From a virus: DNA of 64,000 nucleotides. This document shows positions 23,194 through 38,275 of this stretch, one piece after another (within the stretch, counting starts at the first letter, position 1; every line of letters starts with the position of its first letter). A program made the translations under genes and the position numbers. The notes below the pieces were generated by a model that saw only the letters and a program-made list of their open reading frames with translations, was not told the origin of the DNA and searched no databases. The stretch is taken from the IMG/VR virus record IMGVR_UViG_3300005748_000026, positions 2,808 through 66,807 of that record, one strand, 5' to 3'.

Positions 23194-24582
23194 CTACTCA
23201 AAGAAAGTGTCATCTACATCAAAATCTACACTTCCACCAAATTCTGTAGATGGTGACAATGTTGACATAGGAATATCATCTTCATAAAACCTTGTGAGTT
23301 TACCATTCCACCTTAAATTAACCTCTCCTAATGTTCCTTGCCTAAACTTACAGAATATCCATACCGCAAAATTATCTGTTGGTGTCTTGTCTCCATCGGG
23401 TAATACATACTCAGTTATTCCATATTGCTCTGGTCTATGCAACATTATTATACAATCAGCCGCGTTCTCAATACCTCCAGACTCTCTCAAGTCACTCATT
23501 TGAGGCTTCTTATCCTCTCTTTGGTCTACACTTCTTCCTAATTGTGCTAATGCTATAGTTGCCACACCAAGCTCTTTGCTTACAGCCTTTATCTCAGCAG
23601 ATATTTGGTCAATGGCAGTAACTCTATTTGCTGTCTTACTCTTAACAAGTTGTAAATAGTCAATAATAAAACACTTAACTCCATGCTTTCTACTAAGAAG
23701 TCTCATCCTAGCCACTAAATCTTCTATGTATAAAGAAGCTGTGTCATCTATAAATAGTTTTCTGCTCCTTAAATCATCAAGCCTACTTCCATAAACATCC
23801 ATGTCCAAAACTTCTTTCCCTAAATCTCTGTAGGACTTATCAACCCTCTCAGAAACTAAACGAGCCATAACCTCCTCAGAACTCATTTCCATTGAGAATA
23901 CACCACAAGGCATTTTAGCAGACAAGCATCCGTTTATTATGTTTTTTATAGCAGAAGATTTACCAATAGAAGGTCTAGCTGCAATTACTGTAAGTGTTCC
24001 AAATCCAAAACCTCCTGTATGCCTATTAATTACAGGTAAATCAGTAGGAACTCCAGTTATTGTATTGTTTTTTAAAGCGTCTACTTTCCTCTTAGAGTCT
24101 TCCATAAATAAATCAAATACAGTAGCACCATCCTTTTCTACTGCGTTTGAATTATCTACACTTAATGTCAATATATCACCACCTAACTTAGCTGCCACAT
24201 CAGATGCTAAAATCCCTAAGTCATCAATTTTACTAACGCCATTTTTAATAAGTTTCTTTACTTTATCCCTAACACTATAGTCAACTAAAATAGCAGCATA
24301 TTCTTCTAATCTAGCAGGAGAATACATTTGGGATAACTCTGAAATATAAATCACATTTACAATGGAATCTAATTGATTATCTCTAACATACCTTGATATG
24401 TAAACTAAATCTGGCTCTGTTCCTTTTTGAAAACCATCCTTTATAGCCTTGTATATAATTCTATGTCTCCTATCCGAAAATAAATCCTCATTCAACTTAT
24501 GGGAAACCTCAAAGTACTTTTTAGGAAAAGCAAGTATCGTACCTAATAAATACTGCTCCTCCTTAATTCTAATGTCGCTCAT
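23194..24582 (-). CDS. dnaB: replicative DNA helicase DnaB
   Basis: AARPSIGKS, FSMEMS, IIDYLQLV, LAQLGR and DLRESGGIENAAD motifs, plus a DnaB-type N-terminal domain. Confidence 0.93.
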   Translation of the reverse strand: MSDIRIKEEQYLLGTILAFPKKYFEVSHKLNEDLFSDRRHRIIYKAIKDGFQKGTEPDLVYISRYVRDNQLDSIVNVIYISELSQMYSPARLEEYAAILVDYSVRDKVKKLIKNGVSKIDDLGILASDVAAKLGGDILTLSVDNSNAVEKDGATVFDLFMEDSKRKVDALKNNTITGVPTDLPVINRHTGGFGFGTLTVIAARPSIGKSSAIKNIINGCLSAKMPCGVFSMEMSSEEVMARLVSERVDKSYRDLGKEVLDMDVYGSRLDDLRSRKLFIDDTASLYIEDLVARMRLLSRKHGVKCFIIDYLQLVKSKTANRVTAIDQISAEIKAVSKELGVATIALAQLGRSVDQREDKKPQMSDLRESGGIENAADCIIMLHRPEQYGITEYVLPDGDKTPTDNFAVWIFCKFRQGTLGEVNLRWNGKLTRFYEDDIPMSTLSPSTEFGGSVDFDVDDTFFE

Positions 24583-24675
24583 GTTTTATCTAGTTTTTGG
24601 CAAATATGAAAAAAAATTCTCAATACACTTTGTATTTCAGTTAAAATTATTACTTTTGGCTAAAACAAATACGAA

Positions 24676-24975
24676 ATGAATATAGGAAAAGTTATTAAAG
24701 AACAGCGAAAGAAGTTGAAACTTACTCAGATGGAGTTTTCTAAGATGGTTGGATTGTCTCAAACTTATGTTTCTCAGGTGGAGCATGGTCATAAGACAAT
24801 TAGTTTACCAACTTTAGAGGCAGTATGCCACACCTTAAAGATGCCCATGCCTGTTTTAATCTGGATGTCTTTAGAGAAGAAAGATGTTAGTAAAGATAAG
24901 CGAGAGGCTTTTGATTTATTAAAACCACAGATAGACGATTTAATTTCAAATCTTTATTACTTGAAAAATGACTGA
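24676..24975 (+). CDS. XRE-family HTH transcriptional regulator
   Basis: IKEQRKKLKLTQMEFSKMVGLSQTYVSQVEHG. Confidence 0.88.
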   Translation: MNIGKVIKEQRKKLKLTQMEFSKMVGLSQTYVSQVEHGHKTISLPTLEAVCHTLKMPMPVLIWMSLEKKDVSKDKREAFDLLKPQIDDLISNLYYLKND

Positions 24976-25126
24976 GGGTTATAGACAAGAGCAGCTAGAT
25001 GATTACTTTGCTTCGCAAGACACCACAACAGAAATTTGCGAAAAATGTGGAGAAGTCACATCTTTTAACGTAGAAGACGAGAATCCTATATGTAACCATT
25101 GCTTCGAGAGTTTGTGCGAAGAATAA
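24968..25126 (+). CDS. small zinc-ribbon protein (52 aa)
   Basis: translated by hand: MTEGYRQ...CEKC...CNHC...; overlaps the HTH gene stop. Confidence 0.55.
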   Translation: MTEGYRQEQLDDYFASQDTTTEICEKCGEVTSFNVEDENPICNHCFESLCEE

Positions 25127-25357
25127 CTATTTATATGTTTTTGCGTATGAAATATCATTCATTACTCAAATTATATGCGATAACGTATGAAATGTCATTC
25201 ATAACGGTTTGTATAAGATTTGAAGCGGATTAAACGCACGAACCAAACGATTAAAAACAGAATTAAATAAATAATATTAACCAATGAAAAAGCAATTACA
25301 CCGCTTTTAATTTTATATGGTGTTACCATTAGTTTTTTCGATAAATCACAAACAAAA

Positions 25358-25639
25358 ATGAATATACCTTTAATAATCAAAGAAATTAAAAAACTGTTAC
25401 CTAAAGATACTCGCGAGTATTCGGATTATAAAAAATGGAAAGCATATTGCACTTTCTATGGAAGTGATGAAGATGGTTATTTTGACTTATATTTTAGGGA
25501 AACTTTGTGCGGTAGGCAAACCATTGAAATAGCGAGACAAACCGATAACCCAATGAAGTACGTAGAAATGATTAAAGAAATAGACCAAAAAGCGGTTATT
25601 CTTTATTATAAAACTACACAAATAGAAGTTACTGCCTAA
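25358..25639 (+). CDS. cassette A1 hypothetical protein
   Basis: 93-aa ORF filling the cassette body. Confidence 0.7.
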   Translation: MNIPLIIKEIKKLLPKDTREYSDYKKWKAYCTFYGSDEDGYFDLYFRETLCGRQTIEIARQTDNPMKYVEMIKEIDQKAVILYYKTTQIEVTA

Positions 25640-25728
25640 TTAATGGTAACGTAGCGGCTATGAATTGCGAAGCGAAGCGGAGTTGTTTATAGCTAATGTT
25701 AGTAATAATTATTTTAAAAAAAAATGTA

Positions 25729-26610
25729 ATGGATAAGAAAATAATTGGATGGTGGTCTGGTGGAATAACATCAGCCGTAGCTTGTAAAATATCTATAGAA
25801 TTGTATGGTAAAGATAATGTTAAGGTTATTTTTATTGATACAAGAAACGAAGACGATGATACTTACAGGTTTATGAAGGATTGTTCTGAATGGTACGGTT
25901 TACATATAGAAACAATAAGTAGTGATAAACACGATAGCATTCAAGATGTATGGTTGAAATACAAGGCTTTGAATAATGCGAATGGTGCTGTTTGTAGTTC
26001 TGAAATGAAAAGAAGGGTTAGAGAAACTTGGGAAAAAAATAACGAATGGGAGCATCAAGTTTTTGGCTTTGAGTTAGATGAATACAAGAGAGCTAAAGGG
26101 ATGGTATTAAATCATCCTCACACGAAACCTATATTTCCGTTGATGATGTTTGGGATGAATAAAAAACAGTGTATTGATATAGTTTCAGAAGCAGGAATAA
26201 CACCTCCAAGAATGTATCAATTAGGTTTTTTAAATAATAACTGTTTTAAAACAGGATGCGTTCAAGGGGGAATAGGTTACTGGCAAAAGATGGGTAGAGA
26301 TTTTCCAGATAAGTTTGATAAAATGGCTGAAATGGAGCATAAGCTGACTGATGAAAAAGGAAGCCCTGTTACAATGTTAAAAGACCAAAGTAAAGAAGCG
26401 AAAGATGCTGTAAGTGAGAGTGGCAATAAATGGTCTCAATTTGTTTTCTTGAAACCGCATCCAGATTACCCTAATATTAAAGATATATCTATGATGAAAG
26501 GGAGAGAACCTAAACCTTTATTTGAGTGTAATGGTTTATGCGGAATAAATGACCTTGAAAAAAGAAGTGATACTGAGAGTGAGATAAATATGCAGCGTAC
26601 GCTATTTTAA
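25729..26610 (+). CDS. cassette A2 PAPS-reductase-family (PP-loop) protein
   Basis: WWSGGITSA PP-loop; CS.EMK and NNCFKTGCV Cys motifs; ATG at 25729. Confidence 0.75.
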   Translation: MDKKIIGWWSGGITSAVACKISIELYGKDNVKVIFIDTRNEDDDTYRFMKDCSEWYGLHIETISSDKHDSIQDVWLKYKALNNANGAVCSSEMKRRVRETWEKNNEWEHQVFGFELDEYKRAKGMVLNHPHTKPIFPLMMFGMNKKQCIDIVSEAGITPPRMYQLGFLNNNCFKTGCVQGGIGYWQKMGRDFPDKFDKMAEMEHKLTDEKGSPVTMLKDQSKEAKDAVSESGNKWSQFVFLKPHPDYPNIKDISMMKGREPKPLFECNGLCGINDLEKRSDTESEINMQRTLF

Positions 26611-26757
26611 TTATTACTAACGGCTAAGTATATGAAGCGGTGGCGATTAATAGCTAATAGATTGCCGACACGCTTAAACTAAATTAAATAGCTAAAAGTG
26701 GTTAAATAGACGTACAACGCCACTGATTTATATACAATGTTGTGCGCAGTTATTATT

Positions 26758-27123
26758 ATGAATATTTCACTTACGTTATGTGATAAAAAATTAAATGGTG
26801 ACATACCTAATTATCAATTTAAAAATGTTTTAAAAGGCGAAAACTTAAACGAAGCGCAAGAACTTTTTTATCACTGGTTAGAAGGCAAAGACTTAGAAAA
26901 AAGCGTCTTAGTTTGCTTTGAAAATATTAGAGAATTACCAAACGAACAATTAAGGAATGAGCAAAAATCAATTTTAGTTAGCCATAACTGGGATGATATT
27001 ACAGATTTTTGTGAAAAGCATTTAGATGGAAATGCAGATTATGATATTGATTTTGCGGTGTTTGAGTTTAGCGATTATCAAGACGCTTTTAGTTATTGCA
27101 AAGACCTTAGGGAAAGTTTCTAA
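26758..27123 (+). CDS. cassette A3 hypothetical protein
   Basis: ORF filling the cassette body. Confidence 0.7.
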   Translation: MNISLTLCDKKLNGDIPNYQFKNVLKGENLNEAQELFYHWLEGKDLEKSVLVCFENIRELPNEQLRNEQKSILVSHNWDDITDFCEKHLDGNADYDIDFAVFEFSDYQDAFSYCKDLRESF

Positions 27124-27233
27124 TTGCGCACAACGGCTAGGCTATGCGTATGTGCCGTTAAACCATGCGCTTAAATTTATAACAAGACCTTACAAGTCAT
27201 TACGTATAGCCATTGTTAGGCACTTTTAAAATT

Positions 27234-27404
27234 ATGGAAATATATAAAATAGACTTTGAAAGTAATTACAACGATGGAGGCGATAAAGAATGCTTTTTTA
27301 TAGTAAAAGACTTTAAGGAATTAATGGACGATTTAATTGAAAATACAGATTTAGATAATGTAACAATCAAAAGCATTATTTTTTTAGGCAGGAAATATAA
27401 TTAA
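27234..27404 (+). CDS. cassette A4 small hypothetical protein
   Basis: 56-aa ORF in the cassette body. Confidence 0.6.
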   Translation: MEIYKIDFESNYNDGGDKECFFIVKDFKELMDDLIENTDLDNVTIKSIIFLGRKYN

Positions 27405-27559
27405 CAATTTTAATTGTGCCTAACGTTTCGATGGTATGAAATGTAGGCGATATAGAGTAATACCCTTTCAAATTACACAGGCGTTAATTGGTGCTAAAAG
27501 GCTGACATCACCACTAAACCGCCTATATTTTATACCATGTGTTAGCCACCGTTTTTATT

Positions 27560-27751
27560 ATGATGACAATAAACTTGAACATAAAAGCAAATGTAAATAA
27601 CCTATCTCTTTCGCAGATTTACGAACTGTTGCAAAAATACAGCCTTGAAAAAGTGAAAGACCAAAAAGTTTATGAGTTTAACGGCTATAAATTCCAAATT
27701 GAAACAGAAATAAATATGGCTATAAATTATGTGATTACCGAGCTTCCTTAA
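27560..27751 (+). CDS. cassette A5 small hypothetical protein
   Basis: 63-aa ORF in the cassette body. Confidence 0.6.
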   Translation: MMTINLNIKANVNNLSLSQIYELLQKYSLEKVKDQKVYEFNGYKFQIETEINMAINYVITELP

Positions 27752-27800
27752 ATGGTGGCTAACAACTGGCTATATGCACTTTTACCTATACGATAAACGA

Positions 27801-28016
27801 ATGAAAACACTACAAAAGAAATATAGAATTAAGTGGATTATTGAAGGGTATTCAATATCTGAATGTAACAAGATTTTCAACTCTAAAAATGGAAGGGAAT
27901 TAAAACAGTCTATGGTCAATTATTCAATAGGTTATTACCTTAATGGGAAATTCAGAACATTATCTTGGATTAAAAAGAATTGTAAAAAAGTAGAAAGAAT
28001 TAAATTACCATTTTAA
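27801..28016 (+). CDS. small protein, NUMOD4-like
   Basis: IEGYSISECNKIFNSKNGRELK resembles NUMOD4-type N-termini. Confidence 0.45.
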   Translation: MKTLQKKYRIKWIIEGYSISECNKIFNSKNGRELKQSMVNYSIGYYLNGKFRTLSWIKKNCKKVERIKLPF

Positions 28017-28018
28017 CC

Positions 28019-28159
28019 ATGAGCGAACAAGAAAGAAATGAGAACTTAATCCTAATTATTAGGAAGCAACTAAAAACAGATACTAATACCGCTAAGAAGT
28101 ACCTTCACGTATTTAAAGGGTTTTCTGATAAGTGGATAAAACAACAACTATGGAACTAA
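28019..28159 (+). CDS. small hypothetical protein (46 aa)
   Basis: translated by hand, MSEQERNENL...; tightly packed with neighbours. Confidence 0.45.
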   Translation: MSEQERNENLILIIRKQLKTDTNTAKKYLHVFKGFSDKWIKQQLWN

Positions 28160-28437
28160 AGACAGCAATAGATAGATTTCAAAATGAGTGCGCTAAAGTA
28201 ATCACAGAAGTAAAAAATTACGAGTTTAAAAATCTTGATTCGGATGAACACATATTCAACTTCAAGAACGGAGAGTGTGAGGACTATACGATTCAATTAA
28301 AGGATACCATGATTTATAGCCATTCATGCCCTACTGGAACAACAACATTCAATACAGTGAATGATATGATAGCTTTCGCTAATGGTGACTTTAGCAGAGG
28401 TAAGAGAAAGTCTAATCCTAAACATTGGTCTTATTAA
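28150..28437 (+). CDS. hypothetical protein
   Basis: ORF track; ATG at 28150. Confidence 0.6.
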   Translation: MELKTAIDRFQNECAKVITEVKNYEFKNLDSDEHIFNFKNGECEDYTIQLKDTMIYSHSCPTGTTTFNTVNDMIAFANGDFSRGKRKSNPKHWSY

Positions 28438-28450
28438 ATTAACGAAAGAT

Positions 28451-28687
28451 ATGAAGAGATTAAAAATTGAATGGATAAAATGTGAAGACCAACTCCCTAA
28501 GTACGGAGAAAAGGTTTTGATAGGTAGTAAATCATCTGTTTTTGGAAGAGGAGGTGTATTTATTGGTAAATTACTAAGAGTAGAAACAAATAAATTAGGA
28601 ACATCATTCGTTTGGGAATATGAAAACCCTACATACAACGCTAGGTTGAAGTATTGGAGTCCTCTTCCTTATTGCCCAGAAGATTAA
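28451..28687 (+). CDS. DUF551-like phage protein
   Basis: EWIKCEDQLP....VL ... YWSPLP pattern. Confidence 0.65.
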   Translation: MKRLKIEWIKCEDQLPKYGEKVLIGSKSSVFGRGGVFIGKLLRVETNKLGTSFVWEYENPTYNARLKYWSPLPYCPED

Positions 28688-28705
28688 CAGTAAACACACC
28701 ACACC

Positions 28706-28879
28706 ATGAGCGAAACAGAAGAAACACTAAGTAAAATAAGAAAACTAGAAGCATTTGAGCTATTTGTTATAAACCAAATTACACATAGCGAAGTAATTCT
28801 GGAAAAAGGGATTAAAGGAAGAGATGTCATCAAATCAATATTTGAGTATATAGATTGGGCGGATAAACATGACTGGTAA
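28706..28879 (+). CDS. small hypothetical protein (57 aa)
   Basis: translated by hand, MSETEETLSK...; precedes a terminator. Confidence 0.5.
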   Translation: MSETEETLSKIRKLEAFELFVINQITHSEVILEKGIKGRDVIKSIFEYIDWADKHDW

Positions 28880-28969
28880 CACACCAAAACCCCTTCTCAG
28901 ATACATACAACAGATATGTCAAGTAGATGACACAAAAAACTTGACAAGTAATACACCACACACTAAATC

Positions 28970-28997
28970 AGCACATCATCTCAGGTGTGCTTTTTTT
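28970..28997 (+). terminator. intrinsic terminator
   Basis: AGCACATC-ATCTCA-GGTGTGCT plus a T-run. Confidence 0.75.
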
Positions 28998-29820
28998 ATG
29001 CCCAATTTTAACCCCATAAACCCGTCTCCAACCCGTGTAACATCCTGACCAATCCCAATAATACCGCCAATCCTAAAATTACAAAACAACCAATTCCAAC
29101 CACAAATCATCCGCAAAACCAACACACCACATACTAAACAATCACAATACAACCTAAATAACCCACTTTACCAAATTATATTCCGACTAAACCACAGAAA
29201 ACAAACAACTTCTTTGTATCCACTCGGTAACACACAAAATTATATTCTTATAAATGCCTGTTTTACATCAATATTTATAGCATATTCTAATAAACGCCTT
29301 AAATATCTCTTAACTCAATTCATATAGTCCAATCTACCTTCAAAAATATAAAAGCCTTTAAAAAGCCCTTCAAAATCAGTTGTAGAGGGTAGTCAATATG
29401 TTTTGGGGAGGGATAGAAAAAATTGGAGGGTGGAGAGAAAAAATGGTAGGGGAGTAGAGAGATGGGGTTATAGTACATTACACGGGGGTGGGGTGGCGAA
29501 AAGAAAACGGCTTTATTTCATGGGGGTGGGGTGCGTTTCCGCGTCTCCCATTCCCTCGCGTGGGATTCATTGCCGCCCGTGTCCGCGTGTGAGCTTGGTT
29601 GGCTTGCTTCCCTTGATATTACTTAGCTGCATACTCTCGCGGTGTGGCGTGTTCCCTTCCTTCCATCCTGTTCAGTATATTCTATTTCATTCGCTGCCAT
29701 TCGCCGCATTTTATGTGGTTATGTATGCCAGTATATTGTATTGCTAGGCTTTTACAGGATTCTGTTTAGCTGCGAACCCTTGTAATATATTAACACTCAA
29801 TTAGTTAGGGCATTTTCTAT

Positions 29821-29848
29821 TTGTCAAATAATTATTATTATGTTAAGT
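29821..29848 (+). other. dif-like XerC/XerD site
   Basis: TTGTCAAATAA-TTATTA-TTATGTTAAGT (11-6-11); the right arm matches the E. coli XerD arm TTATGTTAAAT at 10/11. Confidence 0.65.
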
Positions 29849-30400
29849 GACCTAAAAAAGTGACAGTATTTTATTCTGTTGGTGTGATGTTGTTAGATGT
29901 GTTGATATTGTTGGGGTTGAGTGGTGGTTTCTGGTGGGTTATTAGCTTGTTTTGTGGTGTTTTGTGTGTTGGTTGGGTTGTGGGGTTATTCTCCTTCTTA
30001 ATTCTATTCCCTTGACTGTTATTTTTGTTTGGTTTCTCCCTTGCTTTTTTAGTGGGGTGTTTTATTGTTTTGCTTTCCTTGTTTATTACTTTCTTATGTA
30101 CTGGTTTTATTTGTTGGTGTGGTGTCCTGCTAATTAATTTCACTTCCTTGCCTGTTGTTTTCGCTTGGTTTGTTTTGGTTGGGTTGGTTACTTGTTTTTT
30201 GTTCCGCTATGTTTGTTTATTGTCTTTTCTTTTTAGTTGTTTCTCTTTCTGATGTGGTGTGTTGGTTGTCATTCCTGTTTGGCTTCCTATTTGGTTGGTT
30301 GGTTGGTCGGTTGGCCGGTTGGCTTGTGTGCTTTTATCTTATTCCTGTTACTTCTTATTTACCTGTATTGTTCTTTGCTTACCTTTCTGTTGTGGCATCT

Positions 30401-30482
30401 TGCTAACTTTATTAGCACATTACTAAACATATTAGCAGCCTTTTTAACTAACTATTTTAGCATTTTGCTAACGTAATTAGTT
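30401..30482. promoter_or_regulatory. four tandem 17-bp palindromic operators/iterons (nnCTAA-N5-TTAGnn)
   Basis: copies start at 30401, 30421, 30446 and 30466. Confidence 0.7.
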
Positions 30483-30754
30483 TTTTCAATTTTCTTTGTT
30501 TTGCTCAACCCGTTGGTATTATTAGGATGTAGCACTATTCAGTTAATTCTTAGCGTTATTTATATTGATTCTTAATAGTTTTATTCGGTATTTAGCACCG
30601 TCAAACGATAACAACCAACGCGTTATCAACTGACCAGATGCTTGACAACCTGTGATTCAAGCCCACGTGTGAGCCACGTATAAAGCTCTGGAAGTTGAAG
30701 TCCCAGTAAGTCGCACTTCGCACAGTCCTGCAAAAGACATAGCAGTTAGGTGAA

Positions 30755-30818
30755 TGTTTATTAATGCAGCCGCAATAATGCGATAGTTACAAGCCTATTA
30801 AATGCAGAGTAGTAAACA
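30755..30818 (+). ncRNA. twister ribozyme (type P1)
   Basis: P1 TGTTTAT/GTAAACA, TAA, P2 TGCA/TGCA, GC, P3 CGCA/TGCG, P4 ATAG/CTAT with loop TTACAAGC, then GAGT (T1 pseudoknot AC/GT). Confidence 0.85.
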
Positions 30819-30848
30819 ATTTTATTATTAACCTATAAATTTAAAACA

Positions 30849-31094
30849 ATGGACATCGTAAATTTAAACAACGGTATTGATGGAAATCCTAGAAAAGCTA
30901 TTCACTTTTTAGAATTTACAAAGGAAATAGGCGAAGACTTTACAACAGCTTTAAACAGAGCTAAACAATTTCAAAGCACTGCAAAAGCTTACAGGGGCAA
31001 AAAATATGGAGGCATGATTGTATTTACAGACCTTTGGATGAGCAAAAGTCAAATTGAAGAGGCTATTAATGGATTTATGAGTAACTGTGAATAA
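30849..31094 (+). CDS. early-region hypothetical protein
   Basis: 81 aa, A-rich leader. Confidence 0.7.
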   Translation: MDIVNLNNGIDGNPRKAIHFLEFTKEIGEDFTTALNRAKQFQSTAKAYRGKKYGGMIVFTDLWMSKSQIEEAINGFMSNCE

Positions 31095-31117
31095 CAAGGT
31101 GTGGCATCTTGCCAAAA

Positions 31118-31171
31118 GTAATACTGAAGAGGCTTCACTAGCCGAAACCTAGCTTTTGCTAGGTCTATTAC
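31118..31171 (+). ncRNA. hammerhead ribozyme type I (HH1)
   Basis: GTAATA-CTGAAGA-GGCT(TCACT)AGCC-GAAA-CCTAGC(TTTT)GCTAGG-TC-TATTAC. Confidence 0.92.
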
Positions 31172-31192
31172 AAACTTAAAAACTAAAGCAAA

Positions 31193-31348
31193 ATGGACGA
31201 AATTAAAGAAAGATTTGAAATATTCGAGGAAATAGAAAGAGACCAATATTCTACTGTTTTTGAAGCATATGACAAAATTAAAAAATGCTATTGCTATTTA
31301 GAATTACCAAACATAAAAACAAGCTGGCAATTTGATGTTACATATTAA
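31193..31348 (+). CDS. small hypothetical protein (51 aa)
   Basis: translated by hand, MDEIKERFEIF...; A-rich leader after HH1. Confidence 0.6.
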   Translation: MDEIKERFEIFEEIERDQYSTVFEAYDKIKKCYCYLELPNIKTSWQFDVTY

Positions 31349-31383
31349 CTATTTACCTATAAATTTTAAAAAAACTAAACAAT

Positions 31384-31617
31384 ATGAAAACAACTGAACC
31401 AATTTACAACGGATACAGCATAAGACAGATACTAAACAACTTTCCTGAAACCTTTAGCAGTGCCGAAAAAAGGTTTTATATAAAAAACTGCATCGAAGTT
31501 AACCGGATTGAAAAAAGCGGGCTAAACAGGCACTTATTGGAGGGATTAAGGAATTTTAATTTTGCAATGATTAGAAGACACTACGAAATGAACAAAAGTA
31601 ATACTGATGAGGATTAA
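31384..31617 (+). CDS. hypothetical protein
   Basis: 77 aa; the 3' end overlaps HH2. Confidence 0.6.
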   Translation: MKTTEPIYNGYSIRQILNNFPETFSSAEKRFYIKNCIEVNRIEKSGLNRHLLEGLRNFNFAMIRRHYEMNKSNTDED

Positions 31618-31652
31618 ATATCCGAAACTGGGCGCAATGCTCAGTCTATTAC
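31598..31652 (+). ncRNA. hammerhead ribozyme type I (HH2)
   Basis: GTAATA-CTGATGA-GGAT(TAAAT)ATCC-GAAA-CTGGGC(GCAAT)GCTCAG-TC-TATTAC. Confidence 0.92.
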
Positions 31653-31671: not shown

Positions 31672-31905
31672 ATGGAATTTACAATCGAACTTGGTGCAAA
31701 CGAAAAAGTCTTTTTAATAACTACTAGCACAGGCAAAAGCCAATTTTGCAACTTACTAGATATACCTTACATGATTGAGAAATTAGGAACAACGGAAGGT
31801 TATTACAAGGTATTTCATTTCTGGAACAACAAAATGAGAGTAGCAAGTGTAAAATACATTAATGAAATGCTTAAAGCTGCTGGAGTTAATGAAGTAATTT
31901 ATTAA
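31672..31905 (+). CDS. hypothetical protein
   Basis: 77 aa, A-rich leader. Confidence 0.65.
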   Translation: MEFTIELGANEKVFLITTSTGKSQFCNLLDIPYMIEKLGTTEGYYKVFHFWNNKMRVASVKYINEMLKAAGVNEVIY

Positions 31906-31945
31906 TCTGGTGGGGTGTGTTGCCTCACCAAAAAAACTAAACAAT

Positions 31946-32146
31946 ATGAAAACTTTAGCAAAAATACACAAAGAAGAAATTACAAAAATGATTAAAGATA
32001 ACGAGCCTGTAAGATGCTTCAAAGCATATTGCAAAGGAGCTGGATTTGACACAGATAGTTACTCTAGTCCAATCCATATTTCAGAAGACGGGAAATTAAC
32101 AATGAGATATAGAACTATTAACACCTACCACTATATTAGATTGTAG
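31946..32146 (+). CDS. hypothetical protein
   Basis: ATG at 31946 after an A-rich leader. Confidence 0.6.
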   Translation: MKTLAKIHKEEITKMIKDNEPVRCFKAYCKGAGFDTDSYSSPIHISEDGKLTMRYRTINTYHYIRL

Positions 32147-32198
32147 TGGTTTTATAAGTACAAGAAACAATGAAAGACTTAATAAATAACATAAAACG

Positions 32199-32516
32199 AT
32201 GACAACAGCAGAATTAAATACAAAGATAGAAGAAGGAACTAAAAAACATGGTAGCAAAAATGCTTATTTATGTTCGATTGAATATCAAATGGCATATAGA
32301 AAATGGCAAAGAGCAGATAATAGCAATACCGTAAAAAAAGAAGTTAAGGAAGTAGAGATATTGAAACGTGAAGATGGATATGTTGTAAGTTTTGGCAACA
32401 ATAGGTATTTAGCGCATACTGGAACTGGTTTTGGTATGCTTGCTGGAATGAGTATTTTTAAAACATATATACAAGCTAAAAAAGTATGTAACGATTTAAA
32501 TTATAAAGTAAAATAA
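32199..32516 (+). CDS. hypothetical protein
   Basis: 105 aa. Confidence 0.65.
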   Translation: MTTAELNTKIEEGTKKHGSKNAYLCSIEYQMAYRKWQRADNSNTVKKEVKEVEILKREDGYVVSFGNNRYLAHTGTGFGMLAGMSIFKTYIQAKKVCNDLNYKVK

Positions 32517-32556
32517 TAAGGTGGGGCATATTGCCTCATCAAAAAATCAAAACAAC

Positions 32557-32706
32557 ATGAAACGAATCTACAAAATGACCTTAGAGCAAATCTATTTAGA
32601 GTACGTAAACAATTATTTAACAGTAGCTAAAATGGCTGAACATTACGGGATAGATGAAAGCCTATTAAATAGCTTAATAAATGAAGTTAGACCATCTAAA
32701 AACTAA
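32557..32706 (+). CDS. small HTH-like protein
   Basis: YLEYVNNYLTVAKMAEHYGI. Confidence 0.55.
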   Translation: MKRIYKMTLEQIYLEYVNNYLTVAKMAEHYGIDESLLNSLINEVRPSKN

Positions 32707-32711
32707 ACAAC

Positions 32712-32936
32712 ATGAACAAAGAAAAATTAAACCTACTCCCAAACAAATGCACTCTGGAAGAATTAAGCGAAGCTATTAAAAAGCTAAAGCAAGTTGAAGC
32801 AATCATAAATACATTTGACGAAAATGAGCCGATGTACTCAGAATGTATAAGAATTGATAACGAACTGAGCGTATTAGGTTTCTCAATAGAATATGGATTA
32901 TGTGGAACAATAACGGATTTAATAAAGATAGCATGA
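32712..32936 (+). CDS. hypothetical protein
   Basis: 74 aa. Confidence 0.6.
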   Translation: MNKEKLNLLPNKCTLEELSEAIKKLKQVEAIINTFDENEPMYSECIRIDNELSVLGFSIEYGLCGTITDLIKIA

Positions 32937-33088
32937 AAAATTTAAAAAGAATACTAGCGGCAATATGCGCTATAATAGCAATACTTTGTTTAGTCTTCCT
33001 TATGGATGCGGATAATGACAAAGAGACAATAACTGGAGTAATCCTATTTAATGTATATACTCTAATGGGGTATTTTTTAATCAAATAA
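32933..33088 (+). CDS. small membrane protein (two TM segments)
   Basis: two hydrophobic segments; 4-bp overlap with the previous ORF. Confidence 0.55.
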   Translation: MKNLKRILAAICAIIAILCLVFLMDADNDKETITGVILFNVYTLMGYFLIK

Positions 33089-33130
33089 GGTGTGGCATCT
33101 TGCCCACCTCCACCCAATGAACAGGTGTTA

Positions 33131-33172
33131 CCCGAAATAATAAGTGTTGGAAGTTCGATTCTTCCCTTTGGG
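33131..33172 (+). ncRNA. tRNA-like minihelix (acceptor-like stem + T-arm)
   Basis: CCCGAAA...GGAAG-TTCGATT-CTTCC-CTTTGGG; no D or anticodon arm. Confidence 0.5.
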
Positions 33173-33196
33173 GCTAACTTAAAAACAAACAACAAA

Positions 33197-33511
33197 ATGA
33201 ACTTACTTAAACAACTTGAAATGGCAAACATTAAAAGTAAAATAGACTTAAATAGTTTGTCAATAGAGGAATTAAACAAGGTTATTGCTGATGCAAATAG
33301 GCTTTTAAGGCTCAAAGAATATGAATCGAGAGTGCAAAGGAAAGAAGCAGCGAAAACCAACCTAAAAATAGGTGACATTGTTACCGTATCAAGCAAAAGG
33401 TTTGATGGTGAAATATGGGAGGTGTTAAAGCTAAATCCTAAGAAAGTAAAATGCAAAAGAGAAAATGGTGAGGTGTGGCATATACCTTATTCAAACATAA
33501 TAATCAACTAA
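33197..33511 (+). CDS. hypothetical protein with SH3/KOW-like C-terminus
   Basis: LKIGDIVTV...VLKLNPKKVKC...W.IPYS. Confidence 0.6.
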   Translation: MNLLKQLEMANIKSKIDLNSLSIEELNKVIADANRLLRLKEYESRVQRKEAAKTNLKIGDIVTVSSKRFDGEIWEVLKLNPKKVKCKRENGEVWHIPYSNIIIN

Positions 33512-33537
33512 CGGCAACACGCCACAACAAACAAGAC

Positions 33538-33732
33538 ATGAAAGTGAGAGAAATATTTGAAGAGAAAATTAAGATTGAGAAGATTGAGAAAGGTATTGGA
33601 GGGTTGGTGGAAATAACAGCCAACACACCATACCAGAGCATTAATATATCATGCTCAAAATCCTACTTAAACTTACTTACAAAAGAATTTTTAGGTAAAA
33701 AGGTGAATGATTTGAAAATATACAAAGGGTAA
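33538..33732 (+). CDS. hypothetical protein
   Basis: its TAA stop forms the first TAAC of array B. Confidence 0.55.
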   Translation: MKVREIFEEKIKIEKIEKGIGGLVEITANTPYQSINISCSKSYLNLLTKEFLGKKVNDLKIYKG

Positions 33733-33842
33733 CGAAAACATATAAGATACGTTGCCTTTTTCGGCAATGGATTTTATACAGTGTTAGCAGTATGTATTTT
33801 TAAACTTTTTGAGCGTAGGATTTAATAACAAAAAAATATAAA

Positions 33843-34250
33843 ATGAAAGTATTTGTAGCAGAAATAAGAGAAAAAGGAAACTACTCGCCAACCGATTACC
33901 ATTGGTGTGATGACAATGATTTGCTTATGTTCGGGCAGTTTCAGTTAGGAAATGGAAACCCGTCAGAAGTAGCGATGTGTGGTATTCAAAGCAGGAAGTT
34001 TACAACCCATATTTTGGTAAAGGACTTAAAAATTGATAAAGACTTTTATCGTGAGTTAATTACTGAAAGTGTAGAAAAAGCAATGGGTTGTACTATTGAC
34101 AGAAATGGTGATTATGAAATTGAGATGGGTTTCTCGCATCATTTTAACATCTACGATATTATGAATGAATTACTTGAAAAAGCAAATCATTTTGAAGATG
34201 GTGAAAAAGTGAAATGCTTTGGTAGAACGCTGAGTGCGGTGGCAGTTTAA
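33843..34250 (+). CDS. cassette B1 hypothetical protein
   Basis: 135 aa, fills the cassette body. Confidence 0.75.
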   Translation: MKVFVAEIREKGNYSPTDYHWCDDNDLLMFGQFQLGNGNPSEVAMCGIQSRKFTTHILVKDLKIDKDFYRELITESVEKAMGCTIDRNGDYEIEMGFSHHFNIYDIMNELLEKANHFEDGEKVKCFGRTLSAVAV

Positions 34251-34383
34251 AAATATTACTGCTAACGATTTGTATATGGTGTGTAGCCGAAGCACCAAAA
34301 TTATTCGGTTAAAAACAAAACATTAATAGGCTATACATTATATACTTTGTTATATTTTAGTGCGGTTAATTAAAAACAGAATT

Positions 34384-34611
34384 ATGAAAAATATAGAGAT
34401 TAAACCAAGAGAAAATGAGAGCAGAAAAGATTATTTAATTAGAGTAGCTGTTGCTTATTTAAAAGAAGTTGACCATACGGGGCAGTTTCAAACAAACTAC
34501 CCTGACACAATTAAATATGATGATGCAGATTGTGATGGGTGTTGTTTAGCTGATGACTTAGAAAATGAGTTTTCTCATATAGAATTTGATGACTTAACAG
34601 GCGAGTGGTAG
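34384..34611 (+). CDS. cassette B2 hypothetical protein
   Basis: YDDADCDGCCLADD motif. Confidence 0.7.
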   Translation: MKNIEIKPRENESRKDYLIRVAVAYLKEVDHTGQFQTNYPDTIKYDDADCDGCCLADDLENEFSHIEFDDLTGEW

Positions 34612-34679
34612 CATTAAATATAACGATTTGTATATGGTTAGTATTACCATTGAATTATAAACGAATTAAATAAATAAAG

Positions 34680-34901
34680 ATGAAAAATATATTAAAAACA
34701 GAAGATTTTAAAGAAGAAGGAATATTAACTATATACGGTGTTATGGGTATGTTGCCTGATGCCGAAAAAGTTGATGAATTGGCTGAAAAATGGTGTGATG
34801 AAAATGCGGAATCTTGGAATGCACAAAACTCTGCTTACATAGCTGGTATGACTGATTTAATTGAAGCAATAAAAGAACTTGGCAAACTAAACAGGTACTA
34901 A
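34680..34901 (+). CDS. cassette B3 hypothetical protein (starts in hairpin loop)
   Basis: ORF reads through the GTT at 34740. Confidence 0.65.
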   Translation: MKNILKTEDFKEEGILTIYGVMGMLPDAEKVDELAEKWCDENAESWNAQNSAYIAGMTDLIEAIKELGKLNRY

Positions 34902-34984
34902 GGCAATTACCCATAACGTATATGGTATGGTGACGTTGCGACCTTATAGCACGAACTTAATTAATAATTACAAAACTTTGAATT

Positions 34985-35281
34985 ATGAATACAGATAGAA
35001 AAAAAACAGAAACCAAGCAATGCACTATACCAAGTGTTAGCGGTAGTTTTATTTTTGATAAGAACTTAATTGAAAGAGCAATGACTGCTGACAAGCCTTA
35101 TTATGCGATAGGTGTTGATACTTATGACAAAAGTAATCTTGCTTATTGCCTTACCCGAAAAATAGATGGTGTGATTGAGGTATTACTATCTAAAACAATG
35201 AGAGACGAAACTGAATTTAAGCAAGATGTTGAAACACTCGCAAAGTGCTTTGAAGCAGATGTATTTACAAGTGGTGACTAA
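34985..35281 (+). CDS. cassette B4 hypothetical protein (starts in hairpin loop)
   Basis: ORF reads through the GTT at 35036 (QCTIPSVSGS). Confidence 0.7.
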   Translation: MNTDRKKTETKQCTIPSVSGSFIFDKNLIERAMTADKPYYAIGVDTYDKSNLAYCLTRKIDGVIEVLLSKTMRDETEFKQDVETLAKCFEADVFTSGD

Positions 35282-35392
35282 ATTACCGCTAACGGTTTGG
35301 CTAAGAAGCGTAGCCACGTAATCACGCTTCATTAAAAGACAAAAAAGTCGCATATCTATGCTTATTAGCTGTTGTTGTGCGCAGTACGGATT

Positions 35393-35587
35393 ATGATGAC
35401 GATAAAAGATTTAAAGAAAAAAATCGCAAACTACCACGATGATATGCCTATTGTAATAGTTCCCGAAAATGATGACAGAGATGAATCACAGGTAGTAATG
35501 ACAAACGAAATGTGGGATAGGTTAAGAACTAAAAAAGCTAACGGAGTATCAAAAAGTGTTGCGATTTTATGCGTGCCGTTCGGGTAG
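35393..35587 (+). CDS. cassette B5 hypothetical protein
   Basis: MTIKDLKKKIANYHDDMPIV, a common small phage-protein start. Confidence 0.65.
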   Translation: MMTIKDLKKKIANYHDDMPIVIVPENDDRDESQVVMTNEMWDRLRTKKANGVSKSVAILCVPFG

Positions 35588-35646
35588 TATTGCGCACAAC
35601 GGTTTAGCTATGCACCGTAAAGCATAGCGTATGGTGTATAGGTGTT

Positions 35647-35848
35647 GTTGTGTGTATGTTAAAATGCGGTAATGGTTGTAAGTTGGTTCGATTCTAACTA
35701 CCGCAACGAGAGAGGTTCGAATCCTCAAACCCTTGTAGTCAGCAGGTGTCGAGTACTGCATTAGCCGAAACAGGTAGTTAGGTTGTAAATGGAGCATGGC
35801 TTTGCAAGGTGACGGCTCGGAAAGACGAGCATTTTTATTACACACAAC
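35647..35848 (+). ncRNA. cassette B6: non-coding structured RNA with tRNA-like T-arms
   Basis: TGCGGTA..GTTGG-TTCGATT-CTAAC-TACCGCA; GAGG-TTCGAAT-CCTC; GCTCG-GAAAGA-CGAGC; no credible sense ORF. Confidence 0.6.
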
Positions 35849-35896
35849 GGAATCGGCTATGCTTAGTGCGAATATTAACGATAAAATTTAATTGAA

Positions 35897-36187
35897 ATGG
35901 AAGATGTAAAACTAACGAAAGAACAAGAGATACTATTTGAGGTATATGATAAAGGTGTGCAAAATGAAGATTGCGACCTAGATGCTTATATTGAAAAGAT
36001 GAAGCAAGCATTAAGTATAGCCAATGTTACCTGCCGTTTTTTATTTATTTACGTAGATGGTGACTACAAGCTAATACAATATGTGGAAGCTAAAAACCAA
36101 GAAGAAGCTGAAAGTAAAATGGAAGAGGGTTGGGCTAGGATTGTTGAACTAGAAGAAGACATGCAAGTTGTTTATAATGGTAGGTAA
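35897..36187 (+). CDS. cassette B7 hypothetical protein (starts in hairpin loop)
   Basis: reads through the GTT at 36026; its stop is the TAA of the terminal TAAC. Confidence 0.7.
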   Translation: MEDVKLTKEQEILFEVYDKGVQNEDCDLDAYIEKMKQALSIANVTCRFLFIYVDGDYKLIQYVEAKNQEEAESKMEEGWARIVELEEDMQVVYNGR

Positions 36188-36229
36188 CTAACATATATAT
36201 TACACCTACTATAACTAATTGATAATCAA
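36186..36229 (+). other. attI-like site, copy 1
   Basis: AACTAACATATATATTACACCTACTATAACTAATTGATAATCAA, between array B and the integrase; exact inverted copy at 40003-40046. Confidence 0.8.
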
Positions 36230-36240
36230 AAAGAAACGGC

Positions 36241-37065
36241 ATGGATATTCCCAACTTAACCGAAAGACTTAGGAGAGAATTAGAGTTTGCTAACTATAGT
36301 AATTCTACAATTAATCAATATGAGTCATGTTTAAAACAATTCATCAATTACTTTAACTCCAAGTATAATGAGCCTAAGAAGATACCTACATCAGCTATCA
36401 AAGAATATGTAACAAGTCTACACGGAATAGCTAAAAAGAAACAGGCTATAGGATGTTTGAAGCTATTCTATAAACACGTTTGTAAACAACCGAAAAAACT
36501 ATCTGGTGTGGCGTATCCGAAAGGAGAGTCAAAGAAAGCAATCATCCTAAGTGATAGTGAACTTCGAGCATTGTTTGGAGCTTGCACTAACCTTAAACAT
36601 AGAACTATTATGGAGGTCATGTATGGTACTGGTGTACGTGTATCAGAACTTCTCAACATCAAACTATCAGATATTGACAGAGCTAATGGAGTTATTCACA
36701 TACATGATGGTAAAGGGTGTAAGCAAAGGCACGTAACATTGTCTTCTAAACTTCTTAGTAGTATTACTAGGTATTGGAGAGCGTATAGGAGTGAGGTTTA
36801 TTTATTTGAAGGTGTGGCGTGTAGAAAATACTCAGCATCAAGCATTAACCAATTCTTAAAGAAGTACGCTGCCAAAGCAGGTGTTAAGAAGCGTATCTAC
36901 GCTCATTTACTACGCCACAACTACACAACTTCTTCTTTAAAAAATGGTGAGAACTTATACATTACCCAAAAATGCTTAGGGCATAAAAGTCCATCTACAA
37001 CTTCTAACTACTATTACCATATAAGCCCTGAGATAGTCTCTGGTGCTTTTCAACCAACAATCTAA
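36241..37065 (+). CDS. IntI-like tyrosine recombinase (N-terminal SAM-like domain + catalytic domain)
   Basis: NYS.STI.QY N-terminus; GTGVRVSE (R), GKG (K), HLLRH, LGH and STTSNYY (Y). Confidence 0.92.
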   Translation: MDIPNLTERLRRELEFANYSNSTINQYESCLKQFINYFNSKYNEPKKIPTSAIKEYVTSLHGIAKKKQAIGCLKLFYKHVCKQPKKLSGVAYPKGESKKAIILSDSELRALFGACTNLKHRTIMEVMYGTGVRVSELLNIKLSDIDRANGVIHIHDGKGCKQRHVTLSSKLLSSITRYWRAYRSEVYLFEGVACRKYSASSINQFLKKYAAKAGVKKRIYAHLLRHNYTTSSLKNGENLYITQKCLGHKSPSTTSNYYYHISPEIVSGAFQPTI

Positions 37066-37070
37066 AAATT

Positions 37071-37172
37071 ATGGCATCAATTATAGGAACAACATTCGCT
37101 TTAATGGCTTTTTGCTTTATCTTAATAACTATTGGTGTGGTGTGTTTCACACTATTAGACCGAGATGAATAG
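37071..37172 (+). CDS. small membrane peptide (33 aa)
   Basis: MASIIGTTFALMAFCFILITIGVVCFTLLDRDE. Confidence 0.45.
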   Translation: MASIIGTTFALMAFCFILITIGVVCFTLLDRDE

Positions 37173-37194
37173 TATATTTGTAAAAACAATTATC

Positions 37195-37407
37195 ATGGAA
37201 AGAAAAGATTACACAGGAGGAAAGAACTTCTTCCAATGGGTTTTAGCCCAAAAGAAATTAGCAGCAGGTGGAGTAATTATACTTCCTTTACTAGCATTAG
37301 TAATGGGATTCCCACTAGAAGCTCTTATCCTAAGTTCAATGACCATCATAACATTTGTTATGCTAGTGTCTCAGTATCGAAAACTTAAAAGAGGATTTAG
37401 AGAATGA
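37195..37407 (+). CDS. small membrane protein
   Basis: two hydrophobic segments; TATATTTG promoter at 37173. Confidence 0.6.
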   Translation: MERKDYTGGKNFFQWVLAQKKLAAGGVIILPLLALVMGFPLEALILSSMTIITFVMLVSQYRKLKRGFRE

Positions 37408-37913
37408 GATATACTATTAGAAAGGGGAGGAACTATTCTTCCCCTATTTTAGCTAAGATTAGAGGTTTTTTTGGTGTGGCATCTTGGAATGTATCATTCA
37501 AAATACCTACTAACTTCAATGTAGCTCAAGAAGATGCTATAAGTAAATTATGGGGAGTTTCCTTAAATGGATACCACCACAAAAACTCTTATAGAATAGG
37601 CATAAGACCTTATTCATCTAACTTAGCTCAACTATACCACTATTCATATCAAAATGGAGAAAGAATATACAAGCCATTTGGAGTTGTTCTTCTTGGTAAA
37701 AAGTATAAGATGAATGTATCCATTAAAAATGGTATGGTAACTATTAAAACTATCGAAGGTAACATTGACCCGATACCAGAGGGAGGTTCTAAATTCCCAA
37801 TCAAAGTGGATAGGATTAAATATGGATATTACCTATATCCTTATCATGGTGGTGAGGACAAAGCAAAAGAAACTATGAAATTTGATTTGAAAATATGCTC
37901 TATCAGAAAGTAA
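37404..37913 (+). CDS. hypothetical protein (possible beta-sandwich fold)
   Basis: 169 aa, aromatic and beta-rich, YLYPYHGG. Confidence 0.55.
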   Translation: MRYTIRKGRNYSSPILAKIRGFFGVASWNVSFKIPTNFNVAQEDAISKLWGVSLNGYHHKNSYRIGIRPYSSNLAQLYHYSYQNGERIYKPFGVVLLGKKYKMNVSIKNGMVTIKTIEGNIDPIPEGGSKFPIKVDRIKYGYYLYPYHGGEDKAKETMKFDLKICSIRK

Positions 37914-38275
37914 AGAAAATAATAGAGTCTTCAAAAGAGGACAATATAAAAGACCACAAAGAAAAGAATCTAGTAAACAAATATGTTTTTGTCTCTTACT
38001 TTGATACGGTAATTTTTGATTTTGTTACTGTTACAATATCTAAAGGGAATACTTATAAAACTGAGGTGGAAATATATTGTCCTAAAACTAATTTTAAAAC
38101 AAGAGGTGTGGCAGACTGCATGATTATGAGGCAATCTGTTCACACCGCTTTTGAATATGCAGGAGTCAAGTTCCTTAGACCTGTATTAGCAAGTCAAAAA
38201 GGAATTGAAGATGCTGTAGCTGCTATTGCTAAAAAACTAAAGCACACAAAACTCCACACCGTAAAGTTACTCTAG
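37895..38275 (+). CDS. hypothetical protein
   Basis: 126 aa; last plus-strand gene before the convergence point. Confidence 0.6.
   Translation: MLYQKVKKIIESSKEDNIKDHKEKNLVNKYVFVSYFDTVIFDFVTVTISKGNTYKTEVEIYCPKTNFKTRGVADCMIMRQSVHTAFEYAGVKFLRPVLASQKGIEDAVAAIAKKLKHTKLHTVKLL

Follow-up and report, generated by a model that had tools for sequence, protein, structure and literature searches.

The twister is a self-cleaving ribozyme reportedly first described by Roth et al. in 2014. Bacterial twisters share gene neighborhoods with hammerhead ribozymes, the ribozymes clustering mutually and near phage genes, and these neighborhoods have been used in the discovery of further ribozymes (PMC6765202). 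A role in processing polycistronic transcripts has been suggested for the twisters and hammerheads of bacteria, with the function still to be defined, and the role of the thousands of genome-encoded twisters and hammerheads was still called elusive in the same 2019 review (PMC6765202). Here we describe a 64,000-nucleotide stretch of the IMG/VR record IMGVR_UViG_3300005748_000026 (bases 2808–66807 of the 66,807-base record, which is rated 100% complete). This whole stretch is hereafter called the window, and all positions refer to it. Judging by its conserved letters, helices, and pseudoknots, the segment at 30755–30818 is a genuine, structurally complete type-P1 twister ribozyme, which confirms what an earlier note on this DNA had observed. 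Two hammerheads follow it, and the locus fits the twister/hammerhead neighborhood type, in which at least two self-cleaving ribozymes lie close together beside phage genes. Clusters of this sort near phage genes are already published, and the locus holds no new kind of element. In the open-access papers searched, we found no specific study on twisters in phage genomes or on ribozyme-to-start-codon spacing in phages.

The haloviruses HF1 and HF2 produce an early polycistronic transcript that has a hammerhead 13 nt before its first open reading frame (ORF), and the 5′ end mapped for this transcript is no more than 3 nt away from the cut (Perreault et al. 2011, PMC3088659). The window resembles this HHphage hammerhead in that a self-cleaving ribozyme of a tailed virus would stand near the first ORF of an early polycistronic transcript. 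In contrast, HF1 and HF2 carry a hammerhead and not a twister, have an archaeal host, and have a 5′ end mapped in vivo, whereas the cut in the window is a predicted one; the ATG lies 13 nt away in HF1/HF2 and, in the window, 86 nt from the predicted cut and 30 nt from the end of the ribozyme. Tandem hammerheads are also described in prophage-like operons of Clostridium scindens, Azorhizobium caulinodans, and Agrobacterium tumefaciens, and polycistronic RNAs of ca. 2 kb from such prophage-like regions were cut in vitro at every site (PMC3088659). These operons and the twister/hammerhead neighborhoods are similar to the window in having several ribozymes within ca. 2 kb that flank small genes near phage genes, and in that ribozymes of two unrelated classes are found at the same type of site. 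However, the described tandem hammerheads lie in bacterial chromosomes, whereas the window belongs to a free phage genome in which a twister comes first and two paralogous type I hammerheads follow. The glmS ribozyme is likewise a self-cleaving RNA of a 5′ leader that leaves a 5′-OH on the message, but it requires glucosamine-6-phosphate, serves feedback control of one gene, and has an unrelated fold (PMC6765202); no sign of a ligand was seen in the window.

Structure and statistical support of the twister

The twister runs on the plus strand from the outer P1 pair to the outer P1′ pair and was recognized by the Rfam model RF03160, by our own descriptor, and in the minimum-free-energy fold. 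P1 (UGUUUAU at 30755–30761 and GUAAACA at 30812–30818) has seven pairs, the innermost of which is U·G. P2 is a 4-bp helix (UGCA at 30765–30768 and UGCA at 30803–30806), and the optional helix P3 is present (CGCA at 30771–30774 and UGCG at 30779–30782, closing the loop AUAA). P4 (AUAG at 30783–30786 and CUAU at 30795–30798) consists of AUA/UAU plus a G-C extension (3+1 bp), and its inner loop, UUACAAGC, occupies 30787–30794. In the model alignment, the conserved UAA comprises U-1 at 30762 and A1 and A2 at 30763–30764; UAAA follows at 30799–30802, GAG at 30807–30809, and UA at 30810–30811. The essential stems P1, P2 (4 bp), and P4 are all formed, and the termini lie in P1. The conserved letters of L1, L2, and L4 (UAA; GC; G-U..C-A-A-G-C-C; UAAA; GAG) are complete, two positions of the T1 pseudoknot being the sole loop differences. 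The assignment to the twister class, type P1, made in the earlier note therefore holds for every element it had listed, in the sequence as well as in the model alignment.

In the published description, T1 joins L4 to the 3′ strand of L1 through three Watson-Crick pairs, and T2 joins the conserved GC of L2 to two bulged letters of L4 (PMC5408937). Following this definition and the alignment to the consensus, T1 of the window joins UAC at 30788–30790 (L4) with G30809, U30810, and A30811 through the pairs U30788–A30811, A30789–U30810, and C30790–G30809. T2 joins G30769 and C30770 (L2) with G30793 and C30794 (L4) by conserved letters, through G30769–C30794 and C30770–G30793. Thus, the double pseudoknot of a type-P1 twister was found, with three Watson-Crick pairs in T1 and GC:GC in T2. 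The scissile bond of the family joins a U next to P1, which is less conserved, to a highly conserved A (PMC5408937). Based on this rule and the position of UAA in the model alignment, the predicted scissile bond is U30762|A30763, and the cut that had been proposed between T30762 and A30763 fits the rule. By the end chemistry given as general ribozyme knowledge (PMC8782182), the 5′ product is predicted to end in a 2′,3′-cyclic phosphate and the 3′ product to start with a 5′-OH at A30763.

Compared with the Rfam type-P1 twister, the element of the window has the same order of parts, ends in P1, a 4-bp P2, a P3, and a 3+1-bp P4, and it shares the conserved UAA, GCC, GU..CAAGCC, UAAA, and GAG, T1, T2 as GC:GC, and the predicted U-A scissile site. 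It differs in that T1 is UAC:GUA instead of CCC:GGG, the stems are short and A+U-rich, and the score is 20 bits under the threshold. The covariance search gave a match of 47.2 bits at 30758–30815 that covered the whole model (1–68 of 68), with E values of 5.2e-9 (1.4-kb search), 2.4e-7 (entire 64-kb window), and 5.9e-11 (record of 66,807 bases); twister-P1 was the sole Rfam match in the window at E ≤ 1. The Rfam search that the earlier note had suggested as a check thus returned a highly significant E value, although the bit score is under the curated gathering score of 67.2, and standard Rfam annotation lists nothing here for that reason. The two pseudoknots that define the active fold lie beyond what a covariance model can score. 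Our own descriptor, which combines the conserved letters with pairing in P1 (at least three pairs), P2, P4, and T1, had a single match on the two strands of the window, with seven pairs in P1, and none in 300 dinucleotide-preserving shuffles; its sequence-only core also gave no match in 300 shuffles. The minimum-free-energy fold of 30750–30822 consists of P1–P4, and a 261-nt context gives the same helices.

T1 deviates from the Rfam consensus in two of its three pairs, CCC:GGG having become UAC:GUA; both sides are changed and all three still pair, while T2 is the same as the consensus. We scanned IMG/VR with three patterns, namely the UAC:GUA form, the consensus form, and a form in which the variable T1 positions were free (P2 starting with U), and these matched 43 loci, 88 stretches, and at least 118 stretches, respectively. 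From the fetched twister loci, 263 instances with 179 distinct sequences were obtained, and covariation was counted using our own scripts. Both variable T1 pairs are kept in 176 of the 179 distinct phage twisters, and at least nine Watson-Crick T1 combinations occur among them, including UA:UA. The same holds for 91 of the 94 from the loci first fetched by the unbiased scan. These results indicate that T1 positions covary across phage twisters and, therefore, that the twister of the window is a regular member of a covarying family. The UAC:GUA set comprises 44 instances, including that of the window (30 distinct), with diverse P1 and P4 sequences; P1 has at least three pairs in 41 of the 44, whereas one instance lacks P1 and another lacks P4.

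We scored 12 twisters from 11 of the 43 UAC:GUA loci, which were picked for diversity and for a total of less than 70 kb. All 12 fell below the gathering score of 67.2 (39.6–56.4 bits). The shortfall is a property of the UAC:GUA variant and its short A+U-rich stems and not a defect of the copy in the window. It also follows that routine annotation under-counts phage twisters with non-consensus T1, as 0 of 12 pass the Rfam threshold. The two strict patterns alone returned 43 and 88 loci, and by this count twister-P1 is common in phage contigs. In bacterial genomes, the UAC:GUA variant was found in 16 stretches, eight of Bacteroidota (seven Mucilaginibacter and one Petrimonas) and eight of Clostridia. 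Other phage twisters are also clustered with ribozymes: with a Pistol ribozyme in L013 (981–1046; 61.8 bits, above gathering, ca. 550 nt downstream of a twister), with a type II hammerhead in L006 (2742–2805; near-threshold at 34.7 versus 37 bits, ca. 30 nt upstream of a twister), and with a second twister in L026. Multiple twisters per IMG/VR contig were seen further in L204 and L212, which like L026 hold two each, and in L305, which holds four in 3.6 kb.

Hammerheads and the spacing between ribozymes and start codons

A core scan (CUGANGA, closed stem II, and GAAA) of both strands of the window gave exactly two sites, both on the plus strand. Hammerhead 1 (31118–31171) has the core CUGAAGA, stem II at 31131–31143, GAA at 31144–31146, and stem III at 31147–31164; hammerhead 2 (31598–31652) has the core CUGAUGA and the same stem I. 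The catalytic core (CUGANGA...GAAA...UH) is complete in both copies, stems II and III being closed and stem I open. Stem I is GUAAUA/UAUUAC and open in both, as in type I hammerheads, stem II has 4 bp and a 5-nt loop, stem III has seven or eight pairs, and the predicted cuts lie after C31165 in hammerhead 1 and after C31646 in hammerhead 2. The paralogy of the two extends from CAAAAGUAAUA across the ribozyme and then the leader as far as AUGGA, and their stems II and III differ by compensating changes. The nearest Rfam model, RAGATH-1-hammerhead (RF03152), gave 27.9 bits (E = 0.038) for hammerhead 1 and 25.7 bits (E = 0.11) for hammerhead 2 in a 1.4-kb search; both miss its gathering score of 56.3, and a search of the entire window at E ≤ 1 lists neither of them. 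The extra 5′ hairpin of RAGATH-1 corresponds to GGCA/UGCC at 31103–31113 before hammerhead 1 and is deleted in the alignment of hammerhead 2. Stem I is common to 61 IMG/VR loci. The 52 distinct hammerheads, with those of the window counted, all form both stems; stem II has at least four pairs in 50 and stem III in all 52, and 24 different stem II sequences and 26 different stem III sequences occur.

A related type I hammerhead was observed in the cultured T7-like pelagiphages HTVC131P (L386 2596–2660; ca. 2650–2715 of the record), HTVC022P, and HTVC304P. Its stem II is nearly identical to that of hammerhead 1, and its stem I, GUUGUA/UACAAC, compensates relative to GUAAUA/UAUUAC. The site is an unannotated gap in the early region, ahead of the genes for MarR, an integrase, and an RNA polymerase. 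These pelagiphages provide a cultured system for testing this hammerhead subtype.

From the start of the twister to the end of hammerhead 2, the distance is 898 bp, and the statement that three self-cleaving ribozymes of two classes occur within 900 bp proved correct. Each of the three stands 25–86 nt upstream of an ATG, in a phage with portal, terminase, and integrase genes. The first ORF after the twister is ORF1 (30849–31094, plus strand, 81 amino acids), whose ATG lies 30 nt past P1′. ORF2 (31193–31348, 51 amino acids) starts 27 nt after the cut of hammerhead 1 and ORF4 (31672–31905, 77 amino acids) 25 nt after that of hammerhead 2, both on the plus strand; ORF3 (31384–31617, plus strand, 77 amino acids) lies between them. 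By Rfam search at E ≤ 2, there are no more ribozyme-like matches in 31700–38500 or 24000–30760. The TAA stop codon of ORF3 sits in the stem II loop of hammerhead 2 (31598–31617). Ribosomes finishing ORF3 would cross stem I, the core, and half of stem II, and translation and cleavage could therefore interfere.

We counted how often an ATG-started ORF of at least 35 codons begins 15–49 nt after the cut or the ribozyme and took random positions from the same strands of the same loci for comparison, leaving out instances that had less than 400 nt of downstream sequence. In the hammerhead family, such a start was found in 42 of 53 distinct instances versus 176 of 1060 random positions. For the twisters, the counts were 84 of 204 versus 779 of 4080, and an ORF started within 0–14 nt in a further 32 of 204 (421 of 4080 at random). 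The spacings in the window (30 nt from P1′, and 27 and 25 nt from the cuts of hammerheads 1 and 2) fit this pattern, which indicates by comparison across loci that the ribozyme-to-ATG spacing is general and not peculiar to the phage of the window. In engineered parts, RiboJ-type synthetic insulators are placed before ribosome-binding sites, where the ribozyme strips variable upstream RNA and standardizes the leader. From the ATG-spacing statistics, we infer that the natural elements may serve the same insulating purpose.

Proposed role and alternative explanations

Taken as a whole, the data are best explained by a genuine type-P1 twister that lies in a 5′ leader, cuts itself, and defines the 5′ ends of cistrons, and we consider this explanation highly probable. 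Family membership by sequence and fold and the positions relative to ORFs were determined directly, and from them we infer transcription through the element, cleavage, and an effect on expression. A transcript starting upstream of 30755 would fold co-transcriptionally into P1-P2-P3-P4 with the two pseudoknots. The twister would then cut U30762|A30763 and release the upstream RNA with a 2′,3′-cyclic phosphate. The ORF1 message would keep the twister body of 56 nt, in which its 5′-OH would be buried, and would begin 86 nt from its start codon. The 5′ end of the 3′ fragment of the twister is indeed described as buried in the fold (PMC8782182). The hammerheads would cut at their two predicted sites and remain on the 3′ ends of the upstream pieces. 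Four pieces would result: the leader, a 403-nt ORF1 unit (30763–31165), a 481-nt ORF2+ORF3 unit (31166–31646) in which the ORF2 leader would be 27 nt, and a piece with the remaining ORFs that would begin 25 nt before the ATG of ORF4. The likely role is thus self-cleavage of a polycistronic transcript into units with 5′-OH leaders, and the most likely purpose is to give the cistrons defined 5′ ends. Such ends would be promoter-independent and, together with short A/U-rich leaders, would uncouple the stability and translation of the cistrons. Since the spacing is general and the cargo is not conserved, the elements can be read as portable 5′-leader modules that would give any cistron a defined 5′-OH end irrespective of the RNA upstream.

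Overall, the locus consists of a real twister-P1 and two real type I hammerheads that occupy the leader and the gaps between genes in a probable early gene row. It offers a clean natural example of two unrelated ribozyme classes that each stand shortly before start codons in a series of small phage genes, and the strong tie of both classes to a downstream ATG across many phage contigs makes polycistronic processing or leader definition a concrete, testable idea. Its value lies in this clean three-ribozyme layout, in twisters that escape the Rfam thresholds, and in the spacing statistics.

Several results weigh against the preferred explanation. The whole window has zero Rfam matches at gathering thresholds, the twister scoring 47.2 versus 67.2. 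The folding energy lacks significance (z = −1.33; 23 of 200 shuffles equal or surpass it), and thermodynamics contributes nothing to the case for the twister. The spacing statistics were de-duplicated by exact local sequence only and thus over-count related phages. Upstream of the twister, sigma-70-like sites are no commoner than in shuffles (9 versus a mean of 11.4), and Bacteroidota-type −7 motifs occur only in a G+T-rich stretch and may be there by chance; no promoter was placed. Comparative searches gave no orthologous locus. ORF1 as a query found no relative in viral contigs or metagenome contigs. The twister was present in 0 of 50 records that share a PAPS-reductase-like gene with the window (the other 30 loci lay outside the search) and in 0 of 49 that share the hammerhead subtype (L175–L185 lay outside the search). 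The PAPS-reductase-like gene is shared by 80 IMG/VR loci without other nucleotide similarity to the window. Besides these, the window-specific twister pattern had 0 matches in metagenome contigs, blastn of the window against loci L002–L185 gave short matches only (in the loci with the same hammerhead stem I, 84 nt over hammerhead 2 in L173 and an unrelated 147 nt in L149), and blastn of the twister region against cultured phages gave weak matches in A+T-rich leaders, none of them a twister.

The cut could also destabilize rather than protect the message, by analogy with glmS, where cleavage leads to degradation of the mRNA by cellular RNases (PMC6765202). The ribozymes would then be active but act negatively: their 5′-OH ends, exposed to host RNases, would make early messages short-lived, in the manner of a glmS without ligand, and would act as a timer limiting ORF1–ORF3. 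The ribozymes bound only the first three or four cistrons, with none further in the two flanks searched with Rfam, as such a timer would have it. However, the mRNA would retain the twister body at its 5′ end, which is described as buried in the fold (PMC8782182), and the tight placement at 15–49 nt (42 of 53 hammerheads) looks more like leader definition than a decay signal. We regard the timer as unlikely. The twister and the hammerheads might instead be portable, largely selfish cassettes of ribozyme plus leader with little benefit to the phage. In favor of this, the stem I letters of the hammerheads recur in 61 IMG/VR loci with no other nucleotide similarity to the window, except for the matches in L173 and L149; hammerheads 1 and 2 were duplicated together with the leader up to the ATG; ORFs that follow ribozymes in other loci are unrelated to those of the window (0 blastp hits at E ≤ 1e-3 for 41 ORFs of the window against 270 ORFs downstream of ribozymes in other loci); and the twister is missing from the 50 and 49 related records. 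Against this, the intact cores and covarying stems in dozens of diverged copies indicate selection for activity, and the fixed spacing to the start codon indicates use by the downstream gene; we consider cassettes of little benefit quite unlikely.

We consider it very unlikely that the twister mainly forms the 3′ end of a non-coding RNA from the upstream region and does not mature the ORF1 message. The 1.76 kb between a hairpin at 28970–28991 and the twister, with no credible ORF and a strongly skewed composition, would suit such an RNA, but this region showed no Rfam family, significant fold, or clear repeat architecture, and twisters in other phages are typically tied to a downstream ATG. 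A 3′-end role and ORF1 maturation are mutually compatible. Chance resemblance or a decayed, inactive relic would agree with the score under the Rfam gathering score, the short A+U-rich stems, and the non-significant folding energy. That explanation is extremely improbable: the E value in the window is 2.4e-7, the descriptor found nothing in 300 shuffles, no conserved letter is missing, the changes on the two sides of T1 compensate each other, and the two hammerheads adjoining the twister are the typical context of the family.

Going beyond the preferred explanation of self-cleavage that defines cistron 5′ ends, phage twisters and this hammerhead subtype might be natural leader-setting devices whose cleavage is required for expression because it frees each early cistron with a 5′-OH and an unstructured leader of ca. 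25–30 nt; this is a tentative proposal, and we think it rather doubtful. Bacteroidota rely weakly on Shine-Dalgarno pairing, and leader setting could matter especially in such hosts. Ribozyme-dependent translation initiation was reported in 2026 for fungal and plant RNA viruses (PMC13725137), and leader setting, if true, would be its counterpart in a prokaryotic virus. In addition, the 403-nt and 481-nt RNAs between the ribozymes, which would carry a 5′-OH and a 2′,3′-cyclic phosphate, could be circularized by an RtcB-type ligase of the host; RtcB was looked for in the phage, and none is encoded.

The phage, its probable host, and the surroundings of the twister

The record is a 66.8-kb tailed phage, uncultured and of marine type, with genes for a portal, a large terminase, a DnaB-like helicase, an integrase, a RecE-like exonuclease, an Erf-like annealing protein, thymidylate synthase, and the PAPS-reductase-like protein. 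Its terminase matched 124 cultured or named phage records, all with less than 60% identity (best, 34.8%), mostly phages of Flavobacterium (68) and Cellulophaga (15) and a few of Tenacibaculum and Maribacter. A 140-nt piece at ca. 34915–35054 is 88.6% identical to Polaribacter phages, and the G+C content is 32–38%. On the basis of the terminase relatives, the Polaribacter-phage piece, and the low G+C content, the host is probably a member of Flavobacteriia.

ORF1 matches the Pfam family PF24229 (Phage_TreK), a terminal-repeat-encoded protein of Staphylococcus phages, with 23.3 bits, just over the cut-off of 22 (E = 6.3e-5), and phrog_3164 with E = 0.0036. TreK-type terminal-repeat genes are expressed early. 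Apart from ORF1, nine small ORFs of the row were scanned, and seven of them, including ORF2 and ORF3, are without a family match. The twister had been placed at the head of a putative early operon. The position stands, in that the twister ends 30 nt 5′ of the ATG at 30849, while its standing at the head of an early operon is plausible only.

Upstream, the twister closes a stretch of ca. 1.85 kb without a credible ORF that follows the terminator-like hairpin at 28970–28991. The ORF-poor part (28992–30754, plus strand), which has only short low-complexity ORFs, would hold the promoter and, if there is one, the leader RNA. It might represent an end of the genome, an origin, or a non-coding RNA. 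In 28992–30750 (1.76 kb), there is no Rfam match (E ≤ 2), no tRNA, and no clear inverted-repeat architecture, only low-complexity repeats, and the fold of 30590–30850 is not significant (z = −0.44). Its strand composition is extreme: it is A+C-rich and nearly free of G at ca. 29000–29220, G-rich with GGGGGTGGGGTG repeats at 29400–29540, and G+T-rich and nearly free of A at ca. 29880–30400, with (TTGG)n at 30291–30322. Direct repeats of 21 nt containing TTGCTAAC lie at 30395–30415 and 30460–30480. The best Bacteroidota-type promoter candidate in the plus-strand block is at 24651–24658, with TTG 21 nt upstream of TACTTTTG; it is at the strand switch, before the first plus-strand genes, and has no equal directly upstream of the twister.

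Genes lie on the minus strand in 1–24 kb and 38–64 kb and on the plus strand in between. A tyrosine-integrase-like gene (36241–37065, plus strand; phrog_1, E = 5e-41) is located at the end of the plus-strand module, and because of it the phage may be temperate. The PAPS-reductase/PP-loop protein (25696–26610, plus strand) has 54–77% identity in 78 of the 80 kept IMG/VR loci, the other two being lower or partial, and the contigs that share it are otherwise unrelated. A very large ORF (57479–64000, minus strand) has 2156 amino acids from its first ATG, is open to the end of the window, and has no PHROG match at E ≤ 1e-5. A virion structural protein of 1282 amino acids is encoded at 1419–5267.

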